From positions 155,578 through 219,577 of the forward strand of contig CAWGIE010000010.1 in NCBI GenBank assembly GCA_963822585.1: a stretch of DNA of 64,000 bases, in the 5' to 3' direction. Below the pieces are notes generated by a model. It saw nothing but the letters and a program-made list of their open reading frames with translations, was not told the origin of the DNA and ran no database searches. Source of the DNA: an uncultured bacterium. Lineage in GTDB: Bacteria > Auribacterota > Erginobacteria > Erginobacterales > Erginobacteraceae. A program made the translations under genes and the position numbers. Shown in pieces: positions 743 to 59,536 of the stretch (position 1 is its first letter; the number at the start of each line of letters is the position of its first letter).

Positions 743-1675
743 ATGAAAAGAAAGCTTGAGAAATCACTGCAGGCAAAACGTGAATCGAAGCACATCGATT
801 TTAAAGAGACCTTTGATCCAGCATCCAAAGCTGATTGGTGCGAGATATTGAAGGACATAGTCGCAATGGCGAACTCAGAAGGAGGAGTAATTCTGATTGG
901 GCTGAATAATAATGGAAACCCCACCGGATCAGATGTGTCAGATATACTACAACTGGATTCAGCCTGCATTCCCGATAAGATTTATTCATACACAGAAATT
1001 CATTTCTCAGATGTGGAAATCTTGGAACTACATAAAGGGGGATACCAATTGGCGGCAATCGATATCGGTTCTGCCAAAGTCCCAATGGTTTTTGCAAAAC
1101 CCGGCACCTACGCCATATCAACTAAAGAGCAGAAAACGGCTTTCAGTCGAGGAACGATTTACTTCAGACACGGGGCGAAAAGCGAACCTGGTAACACGGG
1201 GGATCTCACTAATGTGATGGAATACCGACTAAGGGAAATCAGGAAGGAATGGATGGCTGGTGTGCGAAAAGTTGTCCAGGCACCAGTTGGATCAAGTGTC
1301 AACATTCTTCCCCCTGATGTGCATGAAACAGATTCGCCACAGGCAACCCCGATTAGAATTGTTGACGACCCGACTGCTCCCAGATATCATATTGTGGATC
1401 CAAATAAAACACATCCACATCGTCAGATGGATGTAGTCAAAAAACTGAATGGAAGGCTGAAGGGCAGAGATCCCATCAAGTCATACGATGTTTTCGCTGT
1501 GAGGCGAATGCAGGGCACAGATAAGCAGATCAAGTTCTACTATAAACCTACTTTCGGGTCTCCTCAGTATAGCCCAGCATTCGTTGAGTGGCTTGAGACA
1601 TGCTATTATAAAGATCCCGATTTTTTCAAAAAGGCACGCAATTTTATGTCAAAACAGCAGAGGAAAATCATCTAA
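743..1675 (+). CDS. AlbA_2 (Schlafen-like, divergent AAA / putative DNA-binding) domain protein
   Basis: N-terminal ESKHIDFKETFDP...EILKDIVAMANSEGGVILIGL matches the AlbA_2 signature (E.K..FD....i.k.i.AfaN..GG.l.iG). The C-terminal half is unknown. Confidence 0.65.
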   Translation: MKRKLEKSLQAKRESKHIDFKETFDPASKADWCEILKDIVAMANSEGGVILIGLNNNGNPTGSDVSDILQLDSACIPDKIYSYTEIHFSDVEILELHKGGYQLAAIDIGSAKVPMVFAKPGTYAISTKEQKTAFSRGTIYFRHGAKSEPGNTGDLTNVMEYRLREIRKEWMAGVRKVVQAPVGSSVNILPPDVHETDSPQATPIRIVDDPTAPRYHIVDPNKTHPHRQMDVVKKLNGRLKGRDPIKSYDVFAVRRMQGTDKQIKFYYKPTFGSPQYSPAFVEWLETCYYKDPDFFKKARNFMSKQQRKII

Positions 1676-2689: not shown

Positions 2690-2880
2690 GTCAAAGAACT
2701 CCAATAGGCCGTTGAACCAACTCAGTTCCGCTACGTGGTCCCAACTGATTAACGTAGTGCTGCTTCGCCAGCGTGCGGCTAATCCGAGCTTCGCGTGGCC
2801 CAACCACGTGTTGAATCCTTCGCCGCTCACGCCTGCGCCCCCTGCGGGGTCGCTCCGTGCGCGTCGAGGCTCAGCGCCAT
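2690..2880. repeat. attC-like intergenic repeat, island-1 family copy C
   Basis: GTGCTGCTTCGCCAGCGTGCGGCTAATCC...GCGTGGCCCAACCACGTG...GTCGAGGCTCAGCGCCA, co-linear with copies A and B. Confidence 0.5.
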
Positions 2881-2978
2881 CCCCCCAGACCCCCGCGGCT
2901 CTTGCCCCGAGATAGCCAAGCTATTTTTTGGGGTTACATCACGGGTGAATCAGTCCAGCAGCCACCCATTCCGGAATA
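2881..2978. repeat. second short repeat element (CCCCGAGATAGCsAAGCTATTTTTyGGG...GGGTGAATCAGTyCAGC)
   Basis: About 90% identical to 14712-14800. The similarity extends beyond any ORF stop, so it is DNA-level and not coding conservation. Confidence 0.5.
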
Positions 2979-3208
2979 TAGTAGTCGGCATGACCGCCGG
3001 CATGAAAGTACCTGAGCCCGGAGTTCTTCTTTTCAATCCACCCGGAATTGGTTGCGTGAATTGAGCCATAATGAAATTCACCACGGTCATTTTGCTCAAA
3101 ACCAGGGTCATCACGCGCCCGGGTTTGTCTTGACATGCCGGGATCTTTTTGCTGAAATGTAAGAAAAGAACTTCGGTATAACTTATCGTTAGTCTTAAAG
3201 ATATTGAT

Positions 3209-4036
3209 ATGGCAGTTCCTATCATAGAAGTGGACGACATCCTGGCGCACTATTTGTCACCGCGCCACATCGGCGGGGGCGGACAGAAACTCGTCTTCGT
3301 GGTCAATGATGCGCACCGAGGAGAACTCGTTCTGAAGATTGGCGGCTATCGCTCGCAGCAGGCCTTACAAAGAGCCCAAAGAGAAGTCTCCACTTTGTCG
3401 GGCATAAGTTCACAGTACTTCCCGGAACAATATGGCTTCGAGATCATTGATGACCACAGGTATGCGATCACGGAGGAATACCTACCAGGCGTGTCACTCG
3501 CCGCCGTCGTTGCGGATTTTGCCGCCGAGCCCAAGCTCATCAACCTCCTGCTTCATCTCACTCGCGGCCTCTCCGAGTTGTGGCGCAGACGAGTGGTACA
3601 CCGCGACGTAAAACCGGCAAATATCCTAATCACACCAACCGGACCAAAGATAATCGATCTCGGCATAGCGCGTCTCTTAGACTGTACATCCCTTACGCAC
3701 TCCTTCGCTCCCATCGGGCCATGCACTCCGGCATACGCCTCACCGGAGCAATTGCGCAATCGCAAACGAGACATAGACCACAGAAGTGATCAATTCAGTT
3801 TGGGTATCGTGAGCGCTCAACTTGCTATGAGTGGAACTCACCCCTTTGACACGCATCTAATCGGCGGTGACAGTGTGCCCGAGAACATTCTGGGGGGACG
3901 CTGGGCGCGGGATAACATAGCCGCTCGCGTTTCTGATCCGTTGCTCGCAGTCGTTACTCGACTTCTGGCGCCAGAACCATACATGCGATATAGAAGAGGT
4001 AAGGACATTCTGGATTCCTTGGAGAAGGCACTATAG
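3209..4036 (+). CDS. Hanks-type Ser/Thr protein kinase (minimal kinase domain only)
   Basis: Catalytic loop HRDVKPANIL. DLG (DFG variant) in IIDLGIA. Activation-loop end YASPEQ. Gly-rich IGGGGQKLVF and lysine context VLKIG. Confidence 0.8.
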   Translation: MAVPIIEVDDILAHYLSPRHIGGGGQKLVFVVNDAHRGELVLKIGGYRSQQALQRAQREVSTLSGISSQYFPEQYGFEIIDDHRYAITEEYLPGVSLAAVVADFAAEPKLINLLLHLTRGLSELWRRRVVHRDVKPANILITPTGPKIIDLGIARLLDCTSLTHSFAPIGPCTPAYASPEQLRNRKRDIDHRSDQFSLGIVSAQLAMSGTHPFDTHLIGGDSVPENILGGRWARDNIAARVSDPLLAVVTRLLAPEPYMRYRRGKDILDSLEKAL

Positions 4037-4046
4037 GGGATCGCTA

Positions 4047-5222
4047 ATGACCGCACTATTTCATCAATTGGGACATAGATTTCAGTGGAGTCTTGACAGC
4101 CTCACAGACGAAGGAACTGGTGACGGTGCTATTATCGGACCGCGATATATGGACCGTTCCTGTGTTACGAGACTGCCAGATGCAATCAGGACCGTATCTT
4201 TATTCGACCCTCAGTTCTTCCTGCCCCAATCTGCGCAGGGTAAGCTCTCAACATATCCTTTCTTCCCTCAAGTGATTGCCGGGGGATTTGCGACTACCGA
4301 ATGGGACGAAACGCTCGGAGATCGATGTGCGCAGGAGTGCTTGCGATTCCAGGACGAATGTGCATTTGGTAGTCTTGTCATTCCCGGCCGGTTCTATGAT
4401 GGCATGCCATCCGATTTTGTCGAGCGACAGGAAACCCAATTTGTCCGACCATTCATGGAGGCAGCCGAAAGGCTCGGACTGCGTCGGCCAATTCTTCTGC
4501 AGTTGATCGTTACAGACCAGATGCTCCGCGATGAAAGATATCAGGCTGACTTGCTTAACTGGGTCACATCATTCCCCGAACTTGCAGGGGTTTATCTCAT
4601 CTACCACGTGCATAACCGCAGAAAACAGATCGATGATATTGACTTCCTGATAGGTGTTTTACAGTTCTGCCGGTCGCTTAAGCAAGCCGATCTGCGCGTG
4701 GTTGTCGGGTATACCAACACAGAAGCGATCCTCCTCTCATGTGTCGAAGTCGACGTCGTATCAATGGGGGCTTACGAGAACTTGAGGATGTTCAGCACAA
4801 CAGCCTTTGAGGAAAGGGATGAGAGCCCACGCCGCGGGCCGAATGCCCGAGTATACATACCGCGGCTTCTTCAATGGGTTGAGTATCCATACCTTGGTGC
4901 TATTCGGCGCGTGGTTCCAGACATCGATGCCTACATCCACGATAACGAACATCGGGTTGAGATGTTTTCCCCTATCTACAACTGGCATTTTACAAAGCCG
5001 CATCCGTATAAGCACTTCTTTGGTGCCTTTGCCGATCAATTTCGGCGAATATGCTCTACAACGGGAGCCCTTCGGATTGACGCGGTGGTCCAGGAGTGTG
5101 AGCGGGCAATACAAGAGTATGACCAATTGTCCAGATCGGGCTTGGTTTTTGATCCCGAAAGCGCTGGCACGCACATCCCGAGATGGCTTACCGCACTGAA
5201 TCTGTGGCGGCGCACACTATGA
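4047..5222 (+). CDS. hypothetical protein (391 aa), no recognisable family, operon partner of the kinase
   Basis: Starts 10 nt after the kinase stop. Intermediate GC like the rest of the island. No motif recognised. Confidence 0.6.
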   Translation: MTALFHQLGHRFQWSLDSLTDEGTGDGAIIGPRYMDRSCVTRLPDAIRTVSLFDPQFFLPQSAQGKLSTYPFFPQVIAGGFATTEWDETLGDRCAQECLRFQDECAFGSLVIPGRFYDGMPSDFVERQETQFVRPFMEAAERLGLRRPILLQLIVTDQMLRDERYQADLLNWVTSFPELAGVYLIYHVHNRRKQIDDIDFLIGVLQFCRSLKQADLRVVVGYTNTEAILLSCVEVDVVSMGAYENLRMFSTTAFEERDESPRRGPNARVYIPRLLQWVEYPYLGAIRRVVPDIDAYIHDNEHRVEMFSPIYNWHFTKPHPYKHFFGAFADQFRRICSTTGALRIDAVVQECERAIQEYDQLSRSGLVFDPESAGTHIPRWLTALNLWRRTL

Positions 5223-5740
5223 AGAGAAACAAGTCAGAGTTTCATTCAGAGAAGAAGCTTTCTCGCATGTTCCAAGCTGCACGGGTGATCAAGAGCAAAA
5301 TGCGTTACCACAATTGGGAGTCGTGGGAGGCGCATGAGCTTCAAGGTCTATTTGGCGTCCCCGACAACCTTCTGGTCTTGTGGAAGTCAAAACGCTCCGG
5401 CAATCGCGTAGTTCGCACCGTCGCATTCGAAATCAAACGCGAGAAGTGGCCCAGAGCACTTATTCAAGCCTACAAGTATCGCGCCTTTGCCGACTACTCT
5501 TTCGTTGTAATGGACGCGGCTTTCGTGCACAGAGCGGTAGCTGCAATCGATAAGTTCAAATGCGCGAACATTGGTCTGCTTTCTGTTTTCAAGACAGGAG
5601 AAGTTGAATGGCATCATACTCCCCGTCTCTGTCGCCCATATTCCGACAGCGCGAGGACTTTCTTGCGAGAGACAATCCACGCTCACCTGTTTAATGTCCC
5701 TAGACGCAACGGAGGCCCAACAATCAAATGGACCGTATAG
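5219..5740 (+). CDS. hypothetical protein with PD-(D/E)xK-like nuclease motif
   Basis: ATGA overlap with the previous stop (5219-5222). VPDNLLVLWKSK...VAFEIKREKW...ALIQAY resembles a PD...E-x-K core (Hjc/NucS-like). Inference only. An alternative start at 5183 exists. Confidence 0.5.
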   Translation: MKRNKSEFHSEKKLSRMFQAARVIKSKMRYHNWESWEAHELQGLFGVPDNLLVLWKSKRSGNRVVRTVAFEIKREKWPRALIQAYKYRAFADYSFVVMDAAFVHRAVAAIDKFKCANIGLLSVFKTGEVEWHHTPRLCRPYSDSARTFLRETIHAHLFNVPRRNGGPTIKWTV

Positions 5741-5797
5741 TGAACACGCTGTGTGTTTACTGAAGGTCATTTGCGTCATTGGCGCAGAAGAAAGAGA

Positions 5798-6724
5798 ATG
5801 AACACCAAAGCACTCACACGACTCACGGCTCGCCAGTTTGAAAATCTCGTTTACGATCTTCTCGTGGCACTGGGACTACGCAATGCTGCATGGCGCACAC
5901 CAGGACGAGACGCCGGTCGCGATATAGAGGGCGAGTACTTTACTGCTGACATATCGGGAAGTTATGTGAAGCAAAAATGGTATATTGAATGCAAGAAGTA
6001 CAAGTCCTCGGTATCGTGGCCAACCGTACGTGAGAAGTTGAGCTATGCCGAGGCTCAAGCGGCCGATTGCCTTTTTGTCGTGACGACTAGCACCATATCC
6101 CCTCAGTGTCTGGATCAGATCGAGCAATGGAATCATGCTCATTCTAGACCGCAAATCCGGCACTGGGGGAGACACGAGTTATCAAATGCCCTTTTTCGCT
6201 TCCCTCACTTGCTCATCAAGTACCGCCTTCGTGCGCCTCTTCCCGAGATCCGCGCGCGTGCATTTCTAGACTTATCCAAAATCGCACTCAAATATATCTA
6301 CTCTGCCCACTCCGCCAGCGTGTTTGATCGAAGCCCGATGGACTATCTTGAAACCGCATCGATACTCTCCGACTTGATAACGCAGAAACTCAGTCAACTC
6401 GAGAGTACTGGCGTCCTATCAAACGAGCATTTTCATGTCGATCAAGACTCTTTTGAATGGATAAAAGTCATAGGGCAAGTGCCACTCTATTTTGACACGT
6501 ACACTATTCGCGCAATCATCGCTGTCGCTCGACAGATTGCGATGGCGAGACTTGTCACGCTCTGCGTCGTTGGCGATCATAGGCTTGAATTGTCGGGTGA
6601 TCCCTCTTTCCGCACACCTACGGAATCCCAAGAGGCTGATCTCCGCGCGATTGCCTCATGGGGAGACCTTGAATTGGAGTTCGATAACGCCACAATCGCA
6701 ATTGTCGGAAGGAACCACATATGA
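5798..6724 (+). CDS. Mrr_cat-type restriction endonuclease domain protein with unknown C-terminal domain
   Basis: FENLVYDLLVALGL...GRDAGRDIEG...WYIECKKYKSSV...VREKL...LFVVTTSTIS matches the Mrr N-terminal catalytic domain pattern (D..E.K). The ATG at 5798 is preferred over the GTG at 5753. Confidence 0.65.
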   Translation: MNTKALTRLTARQFENLVYDLLVALGLRNAAWRTPGRDAGRDIEGEYFTADISGSYVKQKWYIECKKYKSSVSWPTVREKLSYAEAQAADCLFVVTTSTISPQCLDQIEQWNHAHSRPQIRHWGRHELSNALFRFPHLLIKYRLRAPLPEIRARAFLDLSKIALKYIYSAHSASVFDRSPMDYLETASILSDLITQKLSQLESTGVLSNEHFHVDQDSFEWIKVIGQVPLYFDTYTIRAIIAVARQIAMARLVTLCVVGDHRLELSGDPSFRTPTESQEADLRAIASWGDLELEFDNATIAIVGRNHI

Positions 6725-7461
6725 ATGACAGTGTCGCATCAGGCGCACTCCATTTGCTGTCTAACTTCACGCATCAAGTCATAAATCCATTAAATGGGGT
6801 GATCGGCACACTTGATAATATCATTGACGGCACTATCAGTGGCGAAAGGGTCGATCAGAGGCTTCGAAGCTCTCGTGGGCAGTTGGAGTGTGCCGTGTCG
6901 TTGGTTCGAAACCTTGTCTTTTTCGCAGAGTATTCGGCAGACTACTCGTACGCGAAGCAGGCAAAGACAGACAAGATTTGCATCATCCCGCAATTAGTAA
7001 TTGAATCGGCGATGTTCTTCCAGGAATCTGGTGTCGCTCTCGGAGTTAAGATTGAATTACAGAATCGCCAAATCCAGAATGCTGTTCATGGGAATCCGGA
7101 TCTTCTTCGTCAAGTGTTCATGAATATCTTCGATAATGGAATCAAGTATGGAATTAATCCCTCAGTGATTGAGGTGAAGAATTGGATTCAAAAGGAGTCG
7201 CGCTCACTGATTATTACTGTCGCTGGCAGGAGTGTAGGTTTCGAGAAGACAGAAGATATTTTTGCCCTTGGCATTAGAGGGAGAGCGGCGCAAGAGAGGA
7301 CATCATCAGGCAGCGGTCTTGGCCTTAGTATTTGTCGACTCATAATCGAAAAAGTGTTCAATGGGAGGATTGCTGCCCAGCACAGTCCCAAGACAAAGAT
7401 GACAACATTCGAGATCCGAATACCAAATGCATTCGAACATAGGAGTGATCGCCTTGAATAA
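6721..7461 (+). CDS. sensor-less cytoplasmic histidine kinase (DHp + HATPase_c only)
   Basis: The H-box HQVINPLNGVIG lies at residues 18-29, so there is no room for a sensor or TM domain. N-box FDNGIKYG and G2-box GSGLGLSI are present. The start overlaps the upstream stop (ATGA at 6721). Confidence 0.8.
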   Translation: MNDSVASGALHLLSNFTHQVINPLNGVIGTLDNIIDGTISGERVDQRLRSSRGQLECAVSLVRNLVFFAEYSADYSYAKQAKTDKICIIPQLVIESAMFFQESGVALGVKIELQNRQIQNAVHGNPDLLRQVFMNIFDNGIKYGINPSVIEVKNWIQKESRSLIITVAGRSVGFEKTEDIFALGIRGRAAQERTSSGSGLGLSICRLIIEKVFNGRIAAQHSPKTKMTTFEIRIPNAFEHRSDRLE

Positions 7462-7918
7462 CAAGAACGACACTGTGATGATTTTGGACGACGAACCTCA
7501 GCATCAACAATGGCTTGTGGAGTTTATCGAGAGCAAGAATTATCGCGTCGAATCGGCCATGAACCTTGAGCAGGCTGAGGCATTGCTGCGACAGAATAAA
7601 TATCGGTTTGTTGTCATCGATTTGAATGTTCCGGCCCAAGGCTCATCTGCACGGGTTCTGATGAATGAGGGGGCTCTTGCACGTAGATATCCAGGTATAG
7701 TGGCGGCCCAACTGGCGCGAAACCTAGGATATAGAAATCGCCAGGTGGTTCTGTACTCAGTGCATAACTCTGATGAAGTGCGAAAGGAAGCCGCGAGGAT
7801 CGGCGTGCGTTATATCCTAAAGGGGCGCCCGAAGGAGTTTAAGGAAGAAGTTGAGTCAATCCTTCAACGTGATCCAAGTTCTTCAAGAGTGCCAACAAGC
7901 TCTTCCACTCGTATATGA
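7427..7918 (+). CDS. stand-alone response-regulator receiver (REC) domain protein
   Basis: VMILDDEP...RFVVIDLNVP...VVLYS has the acidic pocket and conserved Asp pattern of REC. There is no output domain. The start could be the internal ATG at 7478. Confidence 0.7.
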   Translation: MHSNIGVIALNNKNDTVMILDDEPQHQQWLVEFIESKNYRVESAMNLEQAEALLRQNKYRFVVIDLNVPAQGSSARVLMNEGALARRYPGIVAAQLARNLGYRNRQVVLYSVHNSDEVRKEAARIGVRYILKGRPKEFKEEVESILQRDPSSSRVPTSSSTRI

Positions 7919-8002
7919 ACCCCGCCACGGGGTTCGCGCCAATGAAGCGCAACGTTGAACGTCTGAATGTTGCCGGGAACCGGGGATAAAGGTTGAGCAC
8001 TT

Positions 8003-10870
8003 ATGAGTAGGACATTCGACCAAGGCAAAGATGAAGTTGCAAAGCTGTGCCAATTCTTCGCCACTAACCAGCATTCCTTTCGCGCCCCGAATGTCAAGGA
8101 AGCCCATGTTCGCCAATCGCTCATCAACCCTTTTTTCGAAGCGCTTGGTTGGGACGTGCGCAATAACTCCATGGCCGCACCCCAATATCGCGAAGTCATT
8201 CCCGAAGACAGTCTGGATGTGGAAGGTCACCAGAAGGCGCCCGACTACACCTTCCGCGTCGGCACCTTGCCGAAGTTCTACGTCGAAGCCAAGAAGTGCG
8301 GCGTCAATATCAGCACCGATCCTGGCTCGGCCTATCAACTTCGCCGCTACGGTTTCAGCGCCAAACTTCCTCTATCCATCCTGACCGACTTCGAGGAATT
8401 CAGCGTGTACGATTGTTCCTCTCGCCCTCGCCCCGGCGATAAGGCCAGCCATGCCCGTATCCAGTATTTAGACTTCACCGAGTATCCTGACCGTTGGCGG
8501 GAGATTTGGGACGTGTTCTCACGCGAGGCGGTCTGGTCTGGGGCATTCGACAAGTATGCTGCCTCCAAGCGCAAGCGCGGCACCTCCGAGGTTGACAGCG
8601 AGTTTCTGAAGGATATCGAAGGCTGGCGCGATGTATTGGCACGAAACCTCGCTCTCCGCAACAGCGATTTGTCGGTAGACGATCTCAACGCTGCCGTTCA
8701 ACGGATCATTGACCGGATCGTCTTCCTGCGGATGGCCGAAGACCGCAGATTGGAATCTTATGGGCGACTACTTAGGCTCTGTGAGCGACCACATATCTAC
8801 GACCGTTTTATGAGCGAATTGTGTCGTAAGGCTGACGAAAAATATAACTCCGGCCTGTTCCACTTCCAGAAAGAACCCGGCATTTCTGATGCGCCTGACA
8901 CACTCACACCTCGTCTGACTGTAGACGACAAGGTTCTCAAACTCATTCTTCAAAGCCTTTACTTCGAATACGGTTGCCCATACCACTTTGGTGTCCTACC
9001 CGTAGAAATCCTCGGTACAGTGTACGAACGTTTCCTCGGCAAAGTCATCCGCCTGACCGCCGGGCATAAAGCCAAAGTCGAGGAAAAACCCGAAGTGCGC
9101 AAGGCCGGCGGCGTGTACTATACCCCTGCCTATATAGTGAATTATATTGTCCAGAATACCGTCGGAAAACAGATTGAAGGCAAAAGCCCGGCCAAGCTCT
9201 CCGGCGGCAAAACCAAGCCCCCCTTCCGCGTGCTCGATATGGCCTGTGGAAGTGGCTCCTTTCTCATCGGAGCTTATCAATTCCTGCTGGAACATTGCCT
9301 GAAGTGGTATCTGCACAACCCCACTAAAAAATACGCCAAGGCCACCTATAGGGACGCTAAAGGTGAGCTTCATCTTACTATCGAGGAACGCAAGCGAATT
9401 CTCATCACCCACATCTACGGCGTTGATATTGACCGGCAGGCCGTTGAAACCACCAAGCTCTCGCTACTGTTGAAGGCTCTCGAAGGTGAAAACGACGCCA
9501 CGCTTTCTCAACAGATGTTACTATTCCACGAACGCGCATTACCAAATCTATCCCACAATATCAAATGCGGAAACTCCCTTATCGCCTCTGACTTCTCAAT
9601 GGATCCCGAAGACTTAGTGCGTGTCCATGCCTTCGATTGGCCTGCACAATTCCCCGATGCCATAAAAGCTGGTGGATTCGATACCGTTATCGGTAATCCA
9701 CCGTATTTATATTCCGCGGGACAAGACAACATTGGTTATTTTCAATCAAACTTTCAATTCAGCGAATATCAAACCGACTTTTACGTATATTTCATCGAGA
9801 AGGCGATTAAACTCACTAAGCCCCAAGGACTGTTGTCTTTTATTGTTTCAGATTCCTGGCTCAAGGCAGAGAACTTTTCAAAACTCAGAAAACATCTCTT
9901 GACGGAACACAGGCTTAATCGACTTGCCATTTTTCAATTCCCGCCATTTGCGGGGGCAACTATCGAGAATTCGATTCTTGTGGTCTCCAAAAACGGGAAG
10001 CCTATGGATATTCCCATTGACTCTTTTTCAGAACCAGAAGTGTTTCGGCAAATCAATATTGTCTCCCCTTCTGTCGCGGCTAACCGTGGATTAGTTGATC
10101 CACGATTCTCAAACAAAGCCGAGAAACTCATTCAAAAACTTGAGCTACACAGCTCGCACCTCGAATCTATTACAGAGATTAACCGTGGAATTCACGCATA
10201 TCGCACAGATGGCTACGGCAAATCTAAGTTTGGCCCGGGACCTCAAACTAAACGCGACAAGGAAGAACAGTCCTACCACGCAAAAAGCCCGCTGAATAAA
10301 ACCTATTTGCCGGAATTAAAAGGTAAAAATGTTTTCCGATTTGAGAGTGTTCCGAGTGGTGACTTTGTTTCCTACGGAAATTGGCTGGCTGAATCCCGCC
10401 AGCCAAAATATTTTCTAAATCCAAAGATTGCCCTCCGCAAAGTTCTTGGGAAAAAACTTCATGGAACCTTCCTGCCGAACCCCGTCATATTAGACCAATC
10501 ACTTTATGTAATGATTTCAACCAGCAATGACGAAGATCATTTAAAGTTTCTTCTTGGCATCCTGCTTTCGAGTGTCGGAGCTTGGTATTTAAGAACCAAG
10601 TTTGCCATCTATGACACATTATACCCTTGGTATACTCGCAAACAGCTGGCCTCGTTCCCGATTAAAGGCGAAAACCCTTGCTTAGTGGAGTTGGTGGAGA
10701 AGATGTTGGTGCTGATGCCGAAGCTGCGCGAGGCTACATCGGAATCCGAAAAGGCCGCATTGCAGAATGCCATAACGACGACTGATGCGGAGATCGACCG
10801 TCTGGTGTATGAACTGTACGGCCTGACGGAGGAGGAAATCAAAATTGTTGAAGGGGAATGCTGCCGATGA
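8003..10870 (+). CDS. Type IIG restriction-modification enzyme (MmeI/Eco57I-like fused endonuclease and N6-adenine methyltransferase with TRD)
   Basis: N-terminal PD-ExK (APDYTFRV...FYVEAKK). SAM motif I VLDMACGSGSFL. Motif IV IGNPPYLY. A roughly 350-aa C-terminal region is the candidate target-recognition domain. Total length 955 aa. Confidence 0.75.
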   Translation: MSRTFDQGKDEVAKLCQFFATNQHSFRAPNVKEAHVRQSLINPFFEALGWDVRNNSMAAPQYREVIPEDSLDVEGHQKAPDYTFRVGTLPKFYVEAKKCGVNISTDPGSAYQLRRYGFSAKLPLSILTDFEEFSVYDCSSRPRPGDKASHARIQYLDFTEYPDRWREIWDVFSREAVWSGAFDKYAASKRKRGTSEVDSEFLKDIEGWRDVLARNLALRNSDLSVDDLNAAVQRIIDRIVFLRMAEDRRLESYGRLLRLCERPHIYDRFMSELCRKADEKYNSGLFHFQKEPGISDAPDTLTPRLTVDDKVLKLILQSLYFEYGCPYHFGVLPVEILGTVYERFLGKVIRLTAGHKAKVEEKPEVRKAGGVYYTPAYIVNYIVQNTVGKQIEGKSPAKLSGGKTKPPFRVLDMACGSGSFLIGAYQFLLEHCLKWYLHNPTKKYAKATYRDAKGELHLTIEERKRILITHIYGVDIDRQAVETTKLSLLLKALEGENDATLSQQMLLFHERALPNLSHNIKCGNSLIASDFSMDPEDLVRVHAFDWPAQFPDAIKAGGFDTVIGNPPYLYSAGQDNIGYFQSNFQFSEYQTDFYVYFIEKAIKLTKPQGLLSFIVSDSWLKAENFSKLRKHLLTEHRLNRLAIFQFPPFAGATIENSILVVSKNGKPMDIPIDSFSEPEVFRQINIVSPSVAANRGLVDPRFSNKAEKLIQKLELHSSHLESITEINRGIHAYRTDGYGKSKFGPGPQTKRDKEEQSYHAKSPLNKTYLPELKGKNVFRFESVPSGDFVSYGNWLAESRQPKYFLNPKIALRKVLGKKLHGTFLPNPVILDQSLYVMISTSNDEDHLKFLLGILLSSVGAWYLRTKFAIYDTLYPWYTRKQLASFPIKGENPCLVELVEKMLVLMPKLREATSESEKAALQNAITTTDAEIDRLVYELYGLTEEEIKIVEGECCR

Positions 10871-10947
10871 CGACGCCCAACAATCAGGTGAAGGCAACGC
10901 GGACGACCACGCGCCTCATCCATCACGTTAGCCAAGAGGATTGAAAT
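10871..10947. repeat. short attC-like site (GCCCAACAATCAGG ... CACGTTAGCC)
   Basis: GCCCAAC fits the inverse core RYYYAAC. AACAATC resembles class-1 59-be starts. Ends in a CGTTAGCC core-like motif 9 nt before the next ATG. Confidence 0.4.
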
Positions 10948-12222
10948 ATGAGGACAGATCAGGTCTTTGGCATATCACCCGAGGTACGTGAGTATTCTTA
11001 TGTTGATCGCGGCAATCTCGACGCAGCTTTGGCCACAATGCTTAAGAGGACTACTCACATTGCTATCCGCGGGCCATCAAAGTCAGGTAAATCTTGGCTT
11101 CGGCAGAAAGTGCTGGGAAATCCGATAACGGTGCAGTGTAGACTCAAGAAACCATTCACCGACATATATGTCGATGCGCTTTCACAGCTAAACATAAACA
11201 TCCAGGTCAAAGAATCACGGCAAGGCGTCTTCAAGGCAAACCTTTCCGCAATGGGCGAAGCAGGTTCAGCACTACTGGCCAAAGTTGGCATCACGGCATC
11301 TCTCGGTCGTGATGTCGCAAACCTGACCGAGCAGAGCATAGTCGGTCATGATATCAACGATCTAAAATATATTGCGGATATCATCAAATCGTCCGATCGT
11401 CGCCTTGTCATTGAGGATTTTCACTACATGTCTACGTCTGATCGACGCAGTTTTGCGTTTGATTTGAAAGCGCTCTGGGATTACGGAGTCTTCGTCGTCA
11501 TCATTGGAGTCTGGTCTGAAACAAATCTATTACTCCATCTGAATCCTGATCTTACCGGCAGAGTGACAGAATTACCGATTGACTGGGTACACGATGACTT
11601 AGTGCGGATACTTACAAAAGGAGGGGATGCGCTTCGCATCGAGTTCGCTCCAAGAATTCAATCTCTGCTCGTATCCTTGTCCTATTCCAACGCAGGATTG
11701 CTTCAGCAACTTACACTCCTGACCCTTGATGAAGCGGGAGTCTATGAGAAGGGCTTTCTTAAGAAGACAATAGATAATATCGCTCACGTAGATGGCGCGA
11801 GCATGGTCTACGCGGAGCAACTAAATCCGGTATATCAACAATTTGCAAAGCGCGTCGCAGCTGGCGTCAGGACGCGAAAAAACGCTACGGGAATTTATGC
11901 CCATGCAATGGCTGTTATATTGGATGCATCGGACGAGGAGCTTGTTAAGGGACTCCATGCCCGTTCAATTTTTGAAAGAGCCGTGAAGCGCCAAGAGCGT
12001 ATTCAGTATAGCAACTTGAAGGCAATTCTCGATCAACTTGAAGGGTTGCAAGTGGATGATGACGGTCGCGGGCTGATTCTTGGATATAGTCCAGCGACCG
12101 AGGAGATTACCATCGTTGATCGCCAATTGCTTCTTTATCGCCGATTTGCCACTGTAAAATGGCCATGGGAAGATTTGATCCGCGAGGCTGATGCATTTGG
12201 TGGGCAAATAGAAGCAGGCTAA
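10948..12222 (+). CDS. P-loop NTPase (AAA-like ATPase)
   Basis: Walker A IRGPSKSGKSWL. Walker B RLVIEDFHYM (hhhhDE-type). 424 aa. Confidence 0.7.
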   Translation: MRTDQVFGISPEVREYSYVDRGNLDAALATMLKRTTHIAIRGPSKSGKSWLRQKVLGNPITVQCRLKKPFTDIYVDALSQLNINIQVKESRQGVFKANLSAMGEAGSALLAKVGITASLGRDVANLTEQSIVGHDINDLKYIADIIKSSDRRLVIEDFHYMSTSDRRSFAFDLKALWDYGVFVVIIGVWSETNLLLHLNPDLTGRVTELPIDWVHDDLVRILTKGGDALRIEFAPRIQSLLVSLSYSNAGLLQQLTLLTLDEAGVYEKGFLKKTIDNIAHVDGASMVYAEQLNPVYQQFAKRVAAGVRTRKNATGIYAHAMAVILDASDEELVKGLHARSIFERAVKRQERIQYSNLKAILDQLEGLQVDDDGRGLILGYSPATEEITIVDRQLLLYRRFATVKWPWEDLIREADAFGGQIEAG

Positions 12223-12287
12223 TCAGCGGGTGGAATACTACGGCCTGAAATGGACCAAGGCTTACCCGTGCTGTTCATCAAATAGCA

Positions 12288-13325
12288 ATGAAACTTATCG
12301 GCCACACAATCTTGGATATCTACGGCGTAGAGCGCATACCTCTCGATGGCGAATATACAACAGATCGCCTCGCCGAGGTTATGATCGAGAACTGGGTGCC
12401 CTTTATAGAATGCCATAGGAAATGCTGCCGCGCCGATTCCTGCAAATTCGCCCCAAAGAAGAAAGGAGAGGATATTCGCTGTGAGGTTGCGGTAAAGGTA
12501 ATACGGAATTTCGTGCATATCACTTCTTCGATCCTCGAAGGGTTGAACAGCATACAAATACAGAAATACTTGGACGGAGCATTTTTTTTGTCGAGGTTCA
12601 TTTTCGAAGCTGAGGGCACGGTGGGGATGTGTATGGACGAGGACTGCGTCAGATACTGGGATGAAATGGCCCCAATACTTTTTGGACGACTGACGCGGCT
12701 GCGAGGCAATCTTAACGACCTTGCCACCAACTGGAAAGAGATACCCGAGCTTCGCGCAACTCAGCACGTGCTACTGGTCGAGGGAGAGTCAGAGCGCGCT
12801 TTCCTCGACGAGTTGAGAAAGTCTCACAGCAGTTGGTTCTTGGACCTCAATATTGACGTGTACGGGGGAAAGGGGAACCGCCGTCCTGGCAGGATCCAGA
12901 TGCTATTGAAACGCTATATTTGCCAAGGGTATACCGTTTATGTAGTGGGCGATGCGGATGGAGCGAATACAGATATCTTCGAGCGACTTGTGGATAGCGG
13001 GTTGGTCAAGAGAGAGAGCACGTTCATTTTCACTCACGATTTCGAGACATCGCTTCCGATTGGGTTACTTCTGCATGTTCTCAAAAACCTTCACTTGATT
13101 GGCGATACTGCCTATTGCCGAGAGCTTCTGGATCATCGAAGTGGCTCCGTGGTACAGCAACTCAAGGATGGTTCTTCACTCGATATAGGTCCGCACAAGG
13201 TTGCCGTGGCCCAGGCAGTCGCACGCGTCCTCAACCATCCCGATGTCATATGGTGGCAGAACGATGGGTTCATGAAAGAGAGTGAACTAGGGCGGTTCCT
13301 CCGCTTCATCCAAGGGATCAGATAG
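12288..13325 (+). CDS. TOPRIM-type (OLD/DUF4435-like) nuclease domain protein with N-terminal Cys-rich segment
   Basis: HVLLVEGESERAFL (Toprim conserved Glu) and VYVVGDADGANTD (DxD) about 75 aa downstream. CHRKCCRADSCKF is a possible Zn site. Partner of the upstream ATPase. Confidence 0.5.
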   Translation: MKLIGHTILDIYGVERIPLDGEYTTDRLAEVMIENWVPFIECHRKCCRADSCKFAPKKKGEDIRCEVAVKVIRNFVHITSSILEGLNSIQIQKYLDGAFFLSRFIFEAEGTVGMCMDEDCVRYWDEMAPILFGRLTRLRGNLNDLATNWKEIPELRATQHVLLVEGESERAFLDELRKSHSSWFLDLNIDVYGGKGNRRPGRIQMLLKRYICQGYTVYVVGDADGANTDIFERLVDSGLVKRESTFIFTHDFETSLPIGLLLHVLKNLHLIGDTAYCRELLDHRSGSVVQQLKDGSSLDIGPHKVAVAQAVARVLNHPDVIWWQNDGFMKESELGRFLRFIQGIR

Positions 13326-13521
13326 ATCCTGGCGAACAATCGACTACAACGTTACACCGGCTTCGCTATATTGCATCGGCGAAGTTGTGGTGGAGTGTTC
13401 ATGAAAAAGCATTCAAGATCCTTGATCTGCAATAAGTGCAGGGGAAAACTGAAGTGGGAAAGATTCAAAAAAAACGGCGAACGCTTCAGAACTGTCTTGT
13501 GGTAATCTTTATAGCGACATT

Positions 13522-13773
13522 GTGGAGGAAATTTACATGGTACTCATCGAAGCAAAAGTAATGGACGCAACCCATCTGGAGTTGACAAAGCCCATCACCG
13601 CAAAACGGGGCAAGAAGGTGTTCGTCGTGGTTGCCGAATCCGCGGAGCAGGACGCGGAACGGCGGGAGTGGCTTGAGGGGTCGGCTGCGACTCTGTGCTC
13701 AGCCTACGGCGATTCCGAGCCCGATTACACCCCTGACATGGTCAGAGAAAGCAATCAGGACTATGAGACATGA
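13522..13773 (+). CDS. DUF104-like putative antitoxin
   Basis: MVLIEAKVMDATHLELTKPI...GKKVFVVVAE follows the DUF104 pattern (M.I.A.YENGVLKPLE...G..V.V.I). RBS GGAGG upstream. Confidence 0.4.
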   Translation: MEEIYMVLIEAKVMDATHLELTKPITAKRGKKVFVVVAESAEQDAERREWLEGSAATLCSAYGDSEPDYTPDMVRESNQDYET

Positions 13774-13826
13774 AGGAAGCCGACATCATTCTCACGCCTC
13801 TGCCGCAGGCTGACGTTCAACAATAA
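13770..13826 (+). pseudogene. MazF/PemK-family toxin remnant, truncated after 18 codons
   Basis: ATGA overlap with the antitoxin stop. MKEADIILTPLPQADVQQ* resembles the PemK/MazF N-terminus (GDIVLVPFPFTD), then stops. The next gene follows with its own RBS. Confidence 0.4.
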
Positions 13827-13838
13827 AGGAGGCAAAAA

Positions 13839-14585
13839 ATGAATGCATATCGAATGACCGTGTTGATTGCCCTGCTGATCGCGGGAATAGCTCACACAAC
13901 ATGGGCGGATGATTGCTCCAAGATATCAGTCTCTGGTTCAGCCACCAAACAACTCAAACCGGATGTCGCGTACATCACGCTCTACGTGAACGGAGACGGC
14001 GTGCTGATGTCAGATGCGGCCAAGAAAGCAGACGACAATGTTGAGACAGTTCTCAAGGCCGTCAAGGAAGGACGAACTAACATCATCGACATTGCCGTAA
14101 CAACAATTGATGTCGGAGAAAAAAGTTCTCGCACCTGGAGCAGCGACCAACAGAGCACTCCCCCAAGGCCGCAGGTATCCAAGCGATTGATGATCGCTAT
14201 CCCGCCGGATTCAACCTTGGCGTATGAAATTATTGATGCCGCAATCAGAGCGGGAGCGATTCTGGCTCGCGATAGTATGACGCACTACTCGGGCGAAGTG
14301 CGTGGAACCGTGGTCTATGGCGTCCGGGATGGAGCAGCAATCGAGGAAGAATTAAATAAGGACGCGTTTGCGGATGCCCGCAAGGAAGCAGAAAAAACGG
14401 CGCAATACGCGGGGAAGAGTGTTGGGCCGTTGTGTTCTATCGGGTGCCAATCGACGACATTATGGTCCCAGAGGATGGTGTTTGGCGAAAAGGCGACGGA
14501 GTATCCGACGAAGTACCTGAGCACAGACTCGAAACAGATCGAGATCAAGGCCACGGTATTGGCAACTTTTGAGCTTCAAGATTAA
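13839..14585 (+). CDS. SIMPL/DUF541 (BP26/YggE-like) periplasmic protein
   Basis: Signal peptide MNAYRMTVLIALLIAGIAHTTWA. SIMPL-like GSATKQLKPDVAYITLYV and late KATV..TFEL. RBS AAGGAGG. Confidence 0.6.
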   Translation: MNAYRMTVLIALLIAGIAHTTWADDCSKISVSGSATKQLKPDVAYITLYVNGDGVLMSDAAKKADDNVETVLKAVKEGRTNIIDIAVTTIDVGEKSSRTWSSDQQSTPPRPQVSKRLMIAIPPDSTLAYEIIDAAIRAGAILARDSMTHYSGEVRGTVVYGVRDGAAIEEELNKDAFADARKEAEKTAQYAGKSVGPLCSIGCQSTTLWSQRMVFGEKATEYPTKYLSTDSKQIEIKATVLATFELQD

Positions 14586-14800
14586 GAACCGTCGAACCAT
14601 TGGCTTCAGTTTGTCCGGATGCCCCGACGGCATTCTCGATCCTAATGCGCTCACGGCCGGTCCCCCTTCGGCGCCGGAGCGCTCACGTCGGAATCCAGTG
14701 CCATCCCCCTTAAATCCCGCGGCTTTTACCCCGAGATAGCGAAGCTATTTTTCGGGATTACGCTGTGGGTGAATCAGTTCAGCGATCATCCATGCCGTAA
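14586..14800. repeat. composite intergenic repeat: attC-like part plus copy of the 2881-2978 element
   Basis: 14712-14800 is nearly identical to 2890-2975. The upstream part is GC-rich and palindromic. Confidence 0.5.
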
Positions 14801-14933
14801 TTAAAGAATCGTTGGCAAAGAAGATATTAAAGAATTTGAATTCTGGATGAATGACCGGACAACCGGTTGCAGCGGACAAGGCTCCGCGTCGCCGTTGAAT
14901 AGGAATGTTGAACAAACATAAAAGGAGGGAAAC

Positions 14934-23533: not shown

Positions 23534-23566
23534 ACGATTTGCCCCGTTTTTTTGAAAATAGCTAAG

Positions 23567-23660
23567 AGGAGTGATGGAGTGTTGGAGTGTTGGAGTGTTG
23601 GAAAAACGGGGCCTTCGATACCCATTACTCCACCACTCCACTATTCCATCACTCCATTTC
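23567..23660. repeat. R1 palindromic element (GGAGTGATGGAGT... / ...ACTCCATCACTCC hairpin)
   Basis: One of four copies; the others are at 41674-41766, 51485-51568 and 53946-54052. Confidence 0.7.
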
Positions 23661-23711
23661 GCTTTCTCCCCTCGCGTGAATTAGCCGGATAGCAGGTGCC
23701 CGGGGCAACAG

Positions 23712-24351: not shown

Positions 24352-24598
24352 AGAGCTTACTCGAAAATTTCGTAAGCTTTCAAATCCTAATCTCTACATC
24401 CTTAATAATATCAAATTCAGCCGCCGTAGCCAAAAGGCTACTATGGCGAAGGAGGCTGACTCAAACTAAAAAAATCCAGAACAACGGGGCGACAACTGGC
24501 GATATTTGAAACATTTGGTCATTTGGATTTTGGATTTGTTTAGGATTTCGAAATTAGGATTTCGGATTTCCCGCTCGAAATCCTTTTCGAGCGGGGTG
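24352..24598. repeat. R2: about 245-bp AT-rich MITE-like element (AAATCCTAA-rich, internal hairpin CAGCC..GGCTG, terminal hairpin CCCGCTCGAAATCCTTTTCGAGCGGG)
   Basis: One of four copies; the others are at 30882-31122, 33990-34195 (inverted) and 45487-45742. Confidence 0.7.
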
Positions 24599-30881: not shown

Positions 30882-31122
30882 GAGCTTATTTGAATAGCTC
30901 GTAAGCTCTCAAATCCTAATATCTTCAGCCAAAGGCTGATCCGCCTCTGGAGGAAAATACTAAATCCTAAATAATATCAAATGACCAAAACTAAAAAATC
31001 CAAAACAATGGGGCTAAAACCGGCGATATTCGAAACATTTGATCATTTGGATTTTGGATTTATTTAGGATTTCGAAATTAGGATTTAGGATTTCCTGCTC
31101 GAAATCCCTTTCGAGCAGGGTA
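30882..31122. repeat. R2 MITE-like element copy
   Basis: Above 85% identity to 24352-24598 and 45487-45742. Confidence 0.7.
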
Positions 31123-41606: not shown

Positions 41607-41673
41607 ATCGATCGTGGCCCTTTGTTCTGCGAGAGGAGATGCCTGTCTGCCGACCGTCGGTGGTAGGGGCGGC

Positions 41674-41766
41674 ATGGAGTGATGGAATAATGGAGTATGG
41701 GAGTGACAGCTGGGTGTCCCCCGGTTTTCCATCACTCCACTATTCCATTACTCCATCACTCCATTC
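41674..41766. repeat. R1 palindromic element copy
   Basis: GGAGTGATGGAATAATGGAGT...CCATCACTCCACTATTCCATTACTCCATCACTCC. Confidence 0.7.
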
Positions 41767-45486: not shown

Positions 45487-45742
45487 AATCAGCACGAGCT
45501 ATTTAGAGCTTACTCGAAAAGCTTTTAAGTGCTCAAATTCTAATATCTTCAGCCAAAGGCTGATCCGCCTCCGGCGGAAAATACTAAATCCTAAATAATA
45601 TTCGATGACCAAAACTCAAAATCCAAAACAATGGTGCGAACCCGGCGATATTTGAAACATTTGATCATTTGGATTTTGGATTTATTTGGGATTTCGATAT
45701 TAGGATTTAGGATTTCCTGCCTGAAATCTTTTGCGAGCAGGG
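45487..45742. repeat. R2 MITE-like element copy
   Basis: Matches 30882-31122 along the full length. Confidence 0.7.
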
Positions 45743-45771
45743 TATAATTAGCGAACGAAGAGAGCTGATTT

Positions 45772-51420: not shown

Positions 51421-51484
51421 ACAATACATCAGGGTCATGAGGCCGCCGGTTCGTTGTTACAAAGCGGAATAACGGGGGAAACAA

Positions 51485-51568
51485 GGAGTACTGGAGTGAT
51501 GGAGTAATGGAGTGGTGGGAGCCCGGATACCCATCACTCCAGCACTCCATCACTCCAACATTCCATTT
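51485..51568. repeat. R1 palindromic element copy
   Basis: GGAGTGATGGAGTAATGGAGTGGTGGGAG...CCATCACTCCAGCACTCCATCACTCC. Confidence 0.7.
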
Positions 51569-51596
51569 CACCGAAAGTATCGAGGGCTCGGTATCA

Positions 51597-53945: not shown

Positions 53946-54052
53946 GGGAGTAATGGAGTATTGGAATAGTGGAGTGATGGGATGAGAAAGAAACAAGAGC
54001 CTCGATTATCCATTACTCCGGCACTCCAACACTCCAGCACTCCCGGTTGGAT
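53946..54052. repeat. R1 palindromic element copy
   Basis: GGGAGTAATGGAGTATTGGAATAGTGGAGTGATGG...CCATTACTCCGGCACTCCAACACTCCAGCACTCC. Confidence 0.7.
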
Positions 54053-59286: not shown

Positions 59287-59536
59287 CACGGACATTCCTG
59301 TCTGTGTGGGGCGTCCTTCAGGCCTAAAGTAGCACAGACATTCCTGTCTGTGCGGGGCGTCCGCCAGGCCGAAAGTAGCACAGACATTCCAGTCTGTGGC
59401 GCGTGCCCCAGCCAAGAGTAGCACAGACATTCCTGTCTGTGCGGGGCGTCCGCTAGGCCGAAAGTAGCACAGACATTCCTGTCTGTGCGGGGCGTCCTTC
59501 AGGCCTAAAGTAGCACAGACATTCCTGTCTGTGTGA
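59284..59536. repeat. tandem array, 5.5 copies of a 46-bp unit (TAGCACAGACATTCCTGTCTGTGCGGGGCGTCCGCCAGGCCGAAAG)
   Basis: Each unit contains the hairpin CACAGAC-ATTCCT-GTCTGTG. The variants are ordered A-B-C-B'-A. Confidence 0.8.

Follow-up and report, generated by a model that had tools for sequence, protein, structure and literature searches.

Kinase-driven abortive infection is an established theme. Defence systems based on kinases include KKP (PMC11341870). The two-component defence system Detocs consists of the sensor kinase DtcA, the free receiver DtcB and the receiver-effector DtcC, and a restriction endonuclease serves as effector in a minority of its operons (10.1101/2023.01.24.525353). 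Ambrosia comprises five genes encoding an XRE regulator, an N6 methylase, a HATPase, a REC-wHTH protein and an HNH protein, and its receiver, which carries the DNA-binding wHTH, is proposed to act on transcription (10.1101/2025.09.30.679545). TGT-type enzymes act in the Dpd system, as DpdA (PMC12839542).

Here we analyse six consecutive open reading frames, all on the + strand (3209-7918), in a 64,000-nucleotide stretch of DNA from an uncultured bacterium (the window; Table 1). Our best reading is that they form two independently mobile, phosphorylation-controlled nuclease modules lying side by side, g1-g3 (module A) and g4-g6 (module B), with functions that are predicted.

Table 1 Features of the six-gene stretch and its flanks, with positions in the window
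Feature	Coordinates	Strand	Description	Basis
Schlafen/AlbA_2 gene	743-1675			
g1	3209..4036	+	Minimal Hanks-type Ser/Thr protein kinase, 275 aa, kinase domain only	Pfam Pkinase, E 1.6e-25
g2	4047..5222	+	391-aa protein, transglycosylase-like TIM barrel	Fold
g3	5219..5740	+	Small PD-(D/E)xK nuclease, 173 aa	Conserved motif; ATGA overlap with g2
57-nt spacer	5741..5797		Boundary of modules A and B	A ends and B begins here in all comparative loci
g4	5798..6724	+	Mrr-type nuclease (residues ~1-145) fused to a histidine-kinase-like region (~146-308)	Mrr_cat, E 3.6e-13
g5	6721..7461	+	Sensor-less histidine kinase (DHp + CA), 246 aa, atypical G1 box	HATPase_c, E 4.8e-14
g6	7455..7918 (TTG, likely) or from ATG 7427 (longest ORF)	+	Stand-alone receiver (REC)	Response_reg, E 2.1e-10
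Type IIG RM	8003-10870			PADLOC, E 6e-172
PDC-S59	10948-12222			PADLOC, E 3e-182

Organization and conservation of the six genes

All open reading frames and domain calls of an earlier sequence-only reading hold: a Hanks kinase in g1, a PD...EIK-type motif in g3, an Mrr_cat domain with an intact D...ExK motif in g4, a sensor-less g5 with the H-box histidine at residue 18, and a bare REC domain in g6. Read directly from the sequence, g1 and g2 are 10 nt apart, ATGA overlaps join g2 to g3 (5219-5222) and g4 to g5 (6721-6724), and 57 nt separate g3 from g4, with AGAAAGAGA preceding the g4 ATG at 5798. Gene g6 is likely to start at TTG 7455, which has AGGAG 9 nt ahead and is equivalent to the position at which homologues begin; with this start g5 and g6 overlap by 7 nt, which calls for a minor adjustment of the earlier junction range of -4 to +57 nt. 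The two ATGA overlaps described earlier stand.

The flanking Type IIG RM, PDC-S59 and Schlafen/AlbA_2 genes bear out the defence-island setting. Imperfect-palindrome repeats follow three upstream genes (at 603, 1720 and 2759), with canonical R''/R' boxes unclear by eye, and there are none within 2977-14620; none of the dispersed repeat families falls between the six genes, as expected from the earlier statement that no attC-like repeat lies among them. No integron integrase was found among the window open reading frames from 75 to 21553 scanned against Pfam.

Genes g4-g6 lie within 6 kb of g2 in none of 80 genome loci, and g1-g3 are absent from all 80 metagenome loci that carry g4-g5-g6 in order. 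Nine genome or assembly loci with g4 or g5, representing six distinct places (L006-L011 and L175-L177), likewise have the order g4-g5-g6 and lack g1-g3. The earlier proposal that the six genes form one system fails in this comparison, as the loci carry one triad or the other and never both, save in another assembly of the same sample; when its suggested check of neighbourhood conservation was run, each triad proved to be conserved but the six together did not. Given this zero co-occurrence, each kind of phosphorylation belongs to a module of its own. A phosphorylation-gated nuclease, as proposed before, is the simplest reading for each half, but not one nuclease under both kinds of control.

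The six genes thus probably represent two independent three-gene modules, each with its own phosphorylation-controlled nuclease mechanism, juxtaposed by chance in a low-GC defence island. A single composite system, in which Hanks-kinase and two-component branches converge on the Mrr and PD-(D/E)xK nucleases, would fit the shared strand, the tight packing and the presence of phospho-signalling plus a nuclease in both halves. It is nevertheless very unlikely, because the two halves never co-occur in the 80 loci of module A or the about 90 of module B, the sole other six-gene copy comes from the same sample, and either half forms a complete unit that is conserved independently across phyla. The spacer contains neither a terminator-like nor a promoter-like site, a point that the composite system could also claim, so co-transcription of g1-g6 is possible in this genome, and cross-talk between the two modules, only 57 nt apart, may occur here. 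Correcting the cluster boundary matters, as two systems would be confounded if all six genes were cloned together as one.

Module A: kinase, TIM barrel and nuclease

Module A is an invariant triad in 80 species genomes from at least 12 bacterial and archaeal phyla, with representatives among the Bacillota, Chloroflexota, Desulfobacterota, Bacteroidota, Planctomycetota, Verrucomicrobiota, Bdellovibrionota, Pseudomonadota, Methanocellaceae, haloarchaea and others, and it occurs on Natribaculum and Bacillus plasmids. Wherever the contig extends far enough, g1 immediately precedes g2; g3 adjoins g1-g2 in every locus that is not truncated by a contig end, an adjacency that became complete only once a profile HMM was used. 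Type I RM genes and genes of mobile elements abound in the surroundings: the 148 nearest neighbours include 7 HsdS and 4 integrases, as well as IS21 and Mutator transposases, MobA, RmuC, RhuM, Psu and DUF4007. In some gamma-proteobacteria the module is followed by a Metallophos phosphoesterase. Both modules are found on a few IMG/VR contigs.

The kinase residues of g1 (K43, E59, HRD, N137, D150 of the DLG motif, and the PE of the P+1/APE loop) are conserved across 71 homologues. Its best match to the PADLOC PD-T4-6 models (E 4.6e-29, 99.9 bits) spans the kinase domain; assignment to MADS through its MAD6 kinase was rejected, as g1 scores 78.3 bits against the NCBIfam antiphage_MADS6 model, below the cut-off of 460. 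In g3, the pattern G46-x-x-D49 ... E71-x-K73 ... W77 ... Q83-A is conserved across 64 homologues, and no family match was found for the protein.

The g2 product, which could not be placed before, still has no sequence family in Pfam, NCBIfam, PADLOC or PHROGs, but its fold can now be placed as a transglycosylase-like TIM barrel, with TGT-type enzymes as the nearest structures. In the family alignment 35 residues on the face of the barrel are invariant, and the candidate catalytic residues D54, E226 and E244 sit at strand ends. Gene g2 is nonetheless without a TGT sequence signature: none of 40 members matches a transglycosylase family even at E 10, nothing was returned by a profile search of the PDB or by hhalign comparison with E. 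coli Tgt, and in place of the zinc site CxCxxC...H the alignment contains no CxCxxC and one invariant cysteine only (C98).

We propose that the g2 barrel recognizes or acts on the N-glycosidic bond of a nucleic acid or nucleotide, with a foreign or modified guanine-type base as candidate target. The g1 kinase would couple this event, through Ser/Thr phosphorylation, to activation of the nuclease or of host targets, with g3 as the putative executor; the Metallophos phosphoesterase, possibly a phosphatase, could reset the switch in some gamma-proteobacteria. Module A is a widespread candidate anti-phage system, none like it being described in the databases and literature searched, with a function predicted from context. 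It would bring into the defence repertoire an enzyme of transglycosylase fold that is coupled to Ser/Thr phosphorylation, and bears on how cells handle phages with modified guanines.

Module B and the case for defence

The g4-g5-g6 triad is present in about 90 loci, and those from genomes and assemblies (L006-L011 and L175-L177) come from Rhodospirillales, Nevskia, Vibrio cholerae and Shewanella algae. Gene g5 always follows g4 except in L178 (Pseudomonas), where g5-g6 are kept and an insertion sequence lies upstream of g5 at the place expected for g4. The module consists of three genes in all loci examined, with no methylase, XRE or HNH gene. It adjoins P22-like prophage genes in V. cholerae, and the 148 open reading frames that neighbour 58 loci form a housekeeping mix in which RM genes and integrases are not enriched.

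Mrr_cat is the sole Pfam domain of g4, and its D42 and E64-C-K66 are invariant in 42 sequences. The unplaced C-terminal domain of ~200 aa reported earlier is present, at about 160 aa, and is now seen to be histidine-kinase-like, comprising a DHp hairpin and a small alpha/beta domain with no conserved histidine; it matches DHp/CA folds and not receivers. In the structural model the catalytic domain comes first and the remainder appears DHp/CA-like, with no domain for recognition of DNA or modified bases. Members of the g5 family are 236-254 aa long, lack an N-terminal sensor and have an invariant His18, N box and G2 box. The G1-box aspartate, which contacts adenine in GHKL ATPases, is replaced by G, S, N or E in all members, so autophosphorylation from ATP is uncertain. 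Gene g6 encodes a REC domain only, without a wHTH, in which the DD pair, D65, S111 and K132 are conserved across 44 homologues.

The signalling residues of the module (g5 His18 and g6 Asp65) are kept alongside an intact nuclease motif, and module B is a candidate phage-defence system in the form of a self-contained phosphorelay-controlled nuclease. The g6 receiver would dock on the DHp-like hairpin of g4, as receivers dock on real kinases, and its phosphorylation state would switch the dimeric nuclease on or off. Because g5 has no sensor, the trigger is probably an infection-caused change in phosphoryl flow, or an input through g4 itself. Such a module would extend the Detocs idea of two-component systems as immune systems and would supply a natural example of a pseudo-kinase domain through which a docked receiver switches a nuclease.

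In agreement with the earlier statement that no named system matches, neither triad was found as one in PADLOC, Pfam, NCBIfam, PHROGs or the literature searched. As each is conserved alone across many phyla and no description of either was found, both are candidate new phage-defence systems. Jointly, it is possible, though on balance doubtful, both that module A is a new immune mechanism common to bacteria and archaea, in which a eukaryote-like Ser/Thr kinase controls a transglycosylase-fold enzyme that cleaves or exchanges a nucleic-acid base, or that strips a guanine-type base from, or conjugates one to, a nucleotide or protein, with a dedicated nuclease as executioner, and that module B is, independently, a new two-component wiring, in which a degenerate kinase domain lets the effector read the receiver and the histidine kinase that drives it has a non-canonical nucleotide pocket. 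The core proteins g2, g3 and the g4 C-terminal domain belong to no family of Pfam, NCBIfam, PADLOC or PHROGs and lie in compact, well-delimited, widespread cassettes; culturable hosts carry the modules (Vibrio metschnikovii, Aeromonas and Bacillus plasmids, among them one of B. mycoides, for module A, and V. cholerae and S. algae for module B) and make the predictions directly testable.

Two other readings concern function. Module A could be a Dpd-type, RM-like system in which a TGT-like g2 marks host DNA or RNA by base exchange, g3 cuts unmarked nucleic acid and the kinase merely tunes the process. We consider this improbable: the module A loci inspected and the 25 commonest neighbour families (of 137 matched) include no 7-deazaguanine synthesis genes and neither DpdB nor DpdC, g2 lacks the TGT signature and zinc motif, and known RM systems have no role for a kinase, which here is strictly conserved. 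Alternatively, one or both triads may not serve defence, module B being an ordinary regulatory two-component pair that neighbours a protein of type IV restriction-like or DNA-processing type and module A a kinase-regulated nucleic-acid modification or repair unit. The housekeeping neighbours of module B are consistent with this, as are the annotation of g5 and g6 homologues as ordinary sensor kinases in the source records and the restriction of PADLOC matches to characterized defence models to the g1 kinase domain (PD-T4-6, mad6 and Stk2) and weak hits of g4 to mREase_IV (E 0.0083) and g6 to SduA (E 9.7e-5). However, a receiver without an output domain and a kinase without a sensor cannot by themselves regulate genes, the distribution of both triads is patchy and reaches across distant phyla and two domains, the triads occur on plasmids and beside prophage or RM genes, and the nucleases of both have intact catalytic residues, all of which makes a non-defence role unlikely.

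Relation to described systems

The nearest named systems are Stk2/PD-T4-6 and Dpd for module A, and Detocs and Ambrosia for module B. Module A, with its Hanks kinase g1, compares with the single-gene or kinase-centred defences Stk2, PD-T4-6 and KKP, but PD-T4-6 is a single-gene system, whereas g1 is a kinase domain only and is always flanked by g2 and g3. For g2 the closest comparison is with the guanine transglycosylases of immunity, DpdA of Dpd and Cap10 (PDB 9ntn), the latter from type IV CBASS; g2 shares neither sequence similarity nor the zinc motif with them, is not accompanied by a DpdB partner ATPase, a QueC-like gene or a CD-NTase, and has instead a protein kinase and a nuclease as partners.

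Module B resembles Detocs in combining a histidine kinase, a stand-alone receiver and an effector in three genes, and g6, a lone REC domain with a conserved phospho-accepting aspartate, corresponds to DtcB. In contrast to DtcA, g5 has no N-terminal sensor region, and in place of the receiver-effector fusion of DtcC, g4 carries a histidine-kinase-like DHp/CA domain. The order effector-kinase-receiver and the loss of the G1-box aspartate also differ from Detocs. With Ambrosia the module shares the clustering of a restriction-type nuclease with a HATPase kinase and a receiver, but it has none of the methylase, XRE, wHTH receiver and HNH components of that five-gene system. The g4 Mrr_cat domain with its D...(D/E)xK motif is akin to Mrr and type IV enzymes such as MspJI and AspBHI. 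Recognition of DNA is provided in E. coli Mrr by an N-terminal winged helix and in MspJI by an SRA-like domain, whereas in g4 the recognition domain is replaced by a histidine-kinase-like domain and a dedicated kinase-receiver pair.

The gene cluster and its division

ORF calling recovers the six consecutive genes g1–g6 that a sequence-only reading had described, and the domain assignments of g1, g4, g5 and g6 are matched by Pfam. The junctions are also as first described, with g1 and g2 10 nt apart, ATGA overlaps at 5219 (g2/g3) and 6721 (g4/g5) and a 57-nt gap ahead of g4. The true start codon of g4 has AGAAAGAGA just 5′ of it, and the database copy of its protein is 308 aa long. For g6 the most likely start is a TTG that lies 9 bases past AGGAG, in the same place as the starts of homologues. 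The products of g2 and g3 and the C-terminal half of g4 have no family in NCBIfam, PADLOC or PHROGs. The six genes are free of the dispersed repeat families, no Rfam or tRNA match was obtained anywhere in the window, and promoter and terminator scans gave counts equal to or under shuffle expectation.

Coordinates of the cluster and of surrounding features
Feature	Position	Strand	Basis or setting
Six consecutive ORFs	3209-7918	+	ORF calling
g1, Pkinase	3209-4036	+	Pfam E 1.6e-25
g2, 391 aa	4047-5222	+	no Pfam match
g3	5219-5740	+	no Pfam match
g4, Mrr_cat in N-terminal third	start ATG 5798	+	Pfam E 3.6e-13
g5, HATPase_c	6721-7461	+	Pfam E 4.8e-14
g6, Response_reg	likely start TTG 7455	+	Pfam E 2.1e-10
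Repeats after three small upstream genes	603-665, 1720-1782, 2759-2821		imperfect palindromes
Schlafen/AlbA_2 protein	743-1675		Pfam E 7.7e-17
182-nt direct repeat	2796-2977, 14620-14801		70% identity
Low-GC block with g1–g6 and type IIG RM gene	2977-14620		between direct repeats
PDC-S59 gene	10948-12222		E 3e-182
345-aa ORF without assignment	12288-13325		in low-GC block
SIMPL/DUF541 gene	13839-14585		in low-GC block
GGAGTGWT inverted-repeat sites	23560-23666, 41668-41765, 51477-51583, 53947-54046		intergenic
Dispersed ~136-nt repeat	24462-24597, 30986-31121, 45608-45743		75-89% identity
Tandem array	59280-59533		46-nt unit, 5.6 copies

The sequence-only reading had further taken the six genes as a single unit. 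This part does not survive comparison with other genomes, which indicates that the cluster very probably comprises two independent modules, module A (g1–g3) and module B (g4–g6). There are 299 homologues of g2, all of the same length and none named. On long contigs of three lineages g2 is preceded by a 275-aa kinase and followed by a protein of 153-157 aa, with no Mrr, histidine kinase or receiver gene nearby. Scanning one genome per species gave 80 module A loci, in which a kinase lies directly upstream of g2 wherever there is enough contig, commonly with a 4-nt overlap, and a g3 homologue adjoins g1–g2 in every locus that reaches far enough, as became apparent only once a profile HMM was applied. 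Its placement varies: in Bacillota, Chloroflexota, Bacteroidota and others the g3 homologue follows g2 on the same strand, the form found in Proteobacteria (about 230 aa) is convergent, and in haloarchaea, Brocadiaceae and one Bacillus plasmid the gene lies upstream. Homologues of g4, g5 or g6 were found within 6 kb of g2 in none of the 80 loci.

Conversely, where g4 homologues occur in Rhodospirillales, Nevskia and a soil MAG, the next two genes encode a HATPase_c protein of 235-254 aa and a receiver of 144-157 aa. Across 80 metagenome loci every sufficiently long contig keeps the g4–g5–g6 order, and g1–g3 are absent from all of these loci. The one other place where all six genes occur together is another assembly made from this sample. 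The separation of the triads across loci, with the only other six-gene copy coming from that sample, marks the spacer at 5741-5797 as the module boundary. As this spacer contains no terminator-like site, the two modules may nevertheless be co-transcribed in this genome.

Upstream of the cluster, three small genes are each followed by a 65-130-nt imperfect-palindrome repeat in a cassette-like layout. Canonical attC R''/R' boxes were not identifiable by eye in these repeats, a single copy, at 1690-1830 on the minus strand, has a more stable fold than its shuffles (z -2.5), and a Pfam scan of the ORFs at 75-21553 identified no integron integrase. The same array includes a Schlafen/AlbA_2 protein with weak PADLOC matches to the candidates PDC-S50 and PDC-S19. 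A 182-nt direct repeat flanks an 11.6-kb low-GC block, which may be one inserted island; GC rises from ~0.45-0.54 to 0.55-0.64 past ~15 kb. Elsewhere in the window, short GGAGTGWT octamer arrays with complement arrays (CCAYTACTCC-like) coming within ~20 nt after them make up large inverted repeats at four intergenic sites. A dispersed ~136-nt repeat, with adjoining shared segments at 24353-24401, 30882-31004 and 45506-45628, resembles MITE or REP elements. A tandem array (86% match, TRF score 375) has too short a period to be a CRISPR.

Module A

The g1 protein is a kinase domain alone. Its K43, E59, HRD, N137, DLG Asp and P+1/APE loop are retained across 71 homologues, and the enzyme should be active. 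The g3 protein carries a PD-(D/E)xK nuclease signature (G-x-P-D49 ... E71-x-K73 ... W ... QA) that is kept in 64 sequences, and longer proteobacterial forms have a weak MarR-type wHTH in front.

The g2 model (pLDDT 91) shows a beta/alpha barrel followed by a helical region at the C terminus. In structure comparison, guanine transglycosylase (TGT)-type structures rank first and generic glycosidase-type barrels follow at 13.4 or less. A Foldseek search of the model against the PDB does not reproduce this ranking and returns only generic TIM barrels (E ~1e-4). The g2 family profile gives only chance matches to PDB sequences (E 0.06 or worse), hhalign against E. coli Tgt gives a probability of 0.2%, no TGT family is detected in Pfam at E 10 for 40 members, and the CxCxxC zinc motif is absent from the family alignment. 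Because the Foldseek ranking differs, no sequence method sees TGT and the zinc motif is missing, we describe g2 as transglycosylase-like with only moderate confidence. The alignment has 35 invariant residues, including H6, Q7, D54, Q56, K193, Q194, N224, E226, Y243, E244, R247 and R268. According to the strand list of the model, as we read it, most of these come after barrel strands, a placement that suggests an enzyme rather than a scaffold.

Metallophos (calcineurin-like phosphoesterase) genes occur six times among module A neighbours, and the inspected copies, from Vibrio and Aeromonas, are positioned right past g3. In five loci (L048, L055, L056, L060 and L064) a 254-aa ORF is found at ~7960-8720, just past the convergent g3 homologue; its identity was confirmed in L055 and L064, with the Silvania and second Vibrio copies judged by size and position. 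This gene may be a fourth component of module A.

Module A spans 12 or more bacterial and archaeal phyla, with Methanocellaceae, Natribaculum and Halorubrum among its hosts, and it is plasmid-borne in Natribaculum breve, Bacillus mycoides and B. bombysepticus. Searching plasmids with g2 (tblastn) gave three distant matches, labelled 'hypothetical protein' wherever the match has an annotated gene. Phage genomes gave no match to g2 in the same search, and none of the complete E. coli genomes matched the Silvania triad by blastn. Module A is also present on three IMG/VR contigs. The 148 nearest ORFs at ~50 loci include seven type I specificity subunits and four integrases, together with IS21 and Mutator transposases, MobA, RmuC, RhuM, Psu and DUF4007. 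We consider it likely that module A is a defence system.

Module B

Residues 146-308 of the g4 model (pLDDT 94) form two long antiparallel helices and then a small alpha/beta domain, in which the conserved His, N box and G boxes of a histidine kinase are all absent. A profile of this domain finds nothing among PDB sequences, and because hhalign against the g5 family gives a probability of only 0.3%, the likeness to a kinase is one of fold only. Among 1.84 billion proteins the profile retrieves ~200 representatives, nearly all of them ~305-aa Mrr fusions with the same layout. This rules out a promiscuous regulatory module shared with other effectors, and by this distribution the domain is a dedicated part of an Mrr-type nuclease.

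The g5 protein has an invariant H-box (F-T-H18-Q-x-I-N-P-L) with nothing ahead of it, an N box and a G2 box. The G1-box Asp of GHKL ATPases touches adenine. When 6721-7461 was compared with homologues (L006-L172 and P0321-P0439), every one of the 54 + 26 sequences examined had G, S, N or E in place of the Asp of DxGxG, suggesting that the nucleotide pocket of the family is unusual or that its members act chiefly in phosphotransfer or as phosphatases. In g6 the acidic pair, D65, S111 and K132 are kept, and there is no output domain.

The triad is found in complete Shewanella algae genomes, in five IMG/VR contigs, and in Vibrio cholerae, where P22-like prophage genes and the remnant of an integrase lie next to it. 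In Pseudomonas sp. AA-38 (L178) an insertion sequence occupies the expected position of the Mrr gene, with a DDE transposase gene (within 4301-6000) ~720 nt before the g5–g6 pair; the locus resembles a naturally occurring nuclease knock-out in which kinase and receiver remain. The neighbours of module B (148 ORFs at 58 loci) form a mixture of housekeeping genes with no enrichment in RM or integrase genes. We lean only slightly towards a defence role for module B.

Proposed mechanisms and known systems

The two triads are inherited separately, and nuclease and phospho-signalling residues are intact in each. The specific mechanisms proposed here are held with less confidence than the division into modules or either defence assignment. 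In module A, the g2 barrel would recognise or process the N-glycosidic bond of a nucleic acid or nucleotide, and its structural relatives make a foreign or modified guanine-type base the obvious candidate; defence systems against 7-deazaguanine-modified phage DNA exist, such as GrwAB (PMC12137116). The kinase g1 would convert this event to Ser/Thr phosphorylation, the nuclease g3 would execute and, where present, the Metallophos protein, if a phosphatase, would reset the switch. In module B, g4 would dimerise through its DHp-like hairpin, on which the free receiver g6 would dock as on a true kinase, and phosphoryl flow from His18 to Asp65 would decide whether the nuclease is restrained or set free. 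Since g5 has no sensor, the trigger may be disturbance of this flow in infection, or input through the g4 protein.

A full-text literature search, of incomplete coverage, found no published description of either triad. In module A, g1 matches PADLOC PD-T4-6 models (E 5e-29); PD-T4-6 is a single-gene system, whereas g1 always occurs with g2 and g3, and we therefore reject this assignment. MAD6 is likewise rejected (78 bits against a cut-off of 460). DpdA and Cap10, both TGT-type enzymes, resemble g2 in fold only and their partners are missing; g2 is not DpdA, as the TGT-type sequence signature and the zinc motif are missing and no 7-deazaguanine synthesis genes, DpdB or DpdC were seen in the inspected loci or among the 25 most frequent of 137 matched neighbour families. 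Module B shares with Detocs the plan of kinase, free receiver and effector (10.1101/2023.01.24.525353), but two of the three defining features fail, as g5 is sensor-less and g4 has no receiver domain, and it is not Detocs. Ambrosia also combines HATPase, REC and nuclease but differs in its five genes, which include a methylase and an XRE regulator, and in its DNA-binding receiver (10.1101/2025.09.30.679545), and on these differences it too is rejected. Modules A and B are candidate conflict modules, undescribed, compact and broadly distributed, in which known kinds of parts appear in new arrangements.
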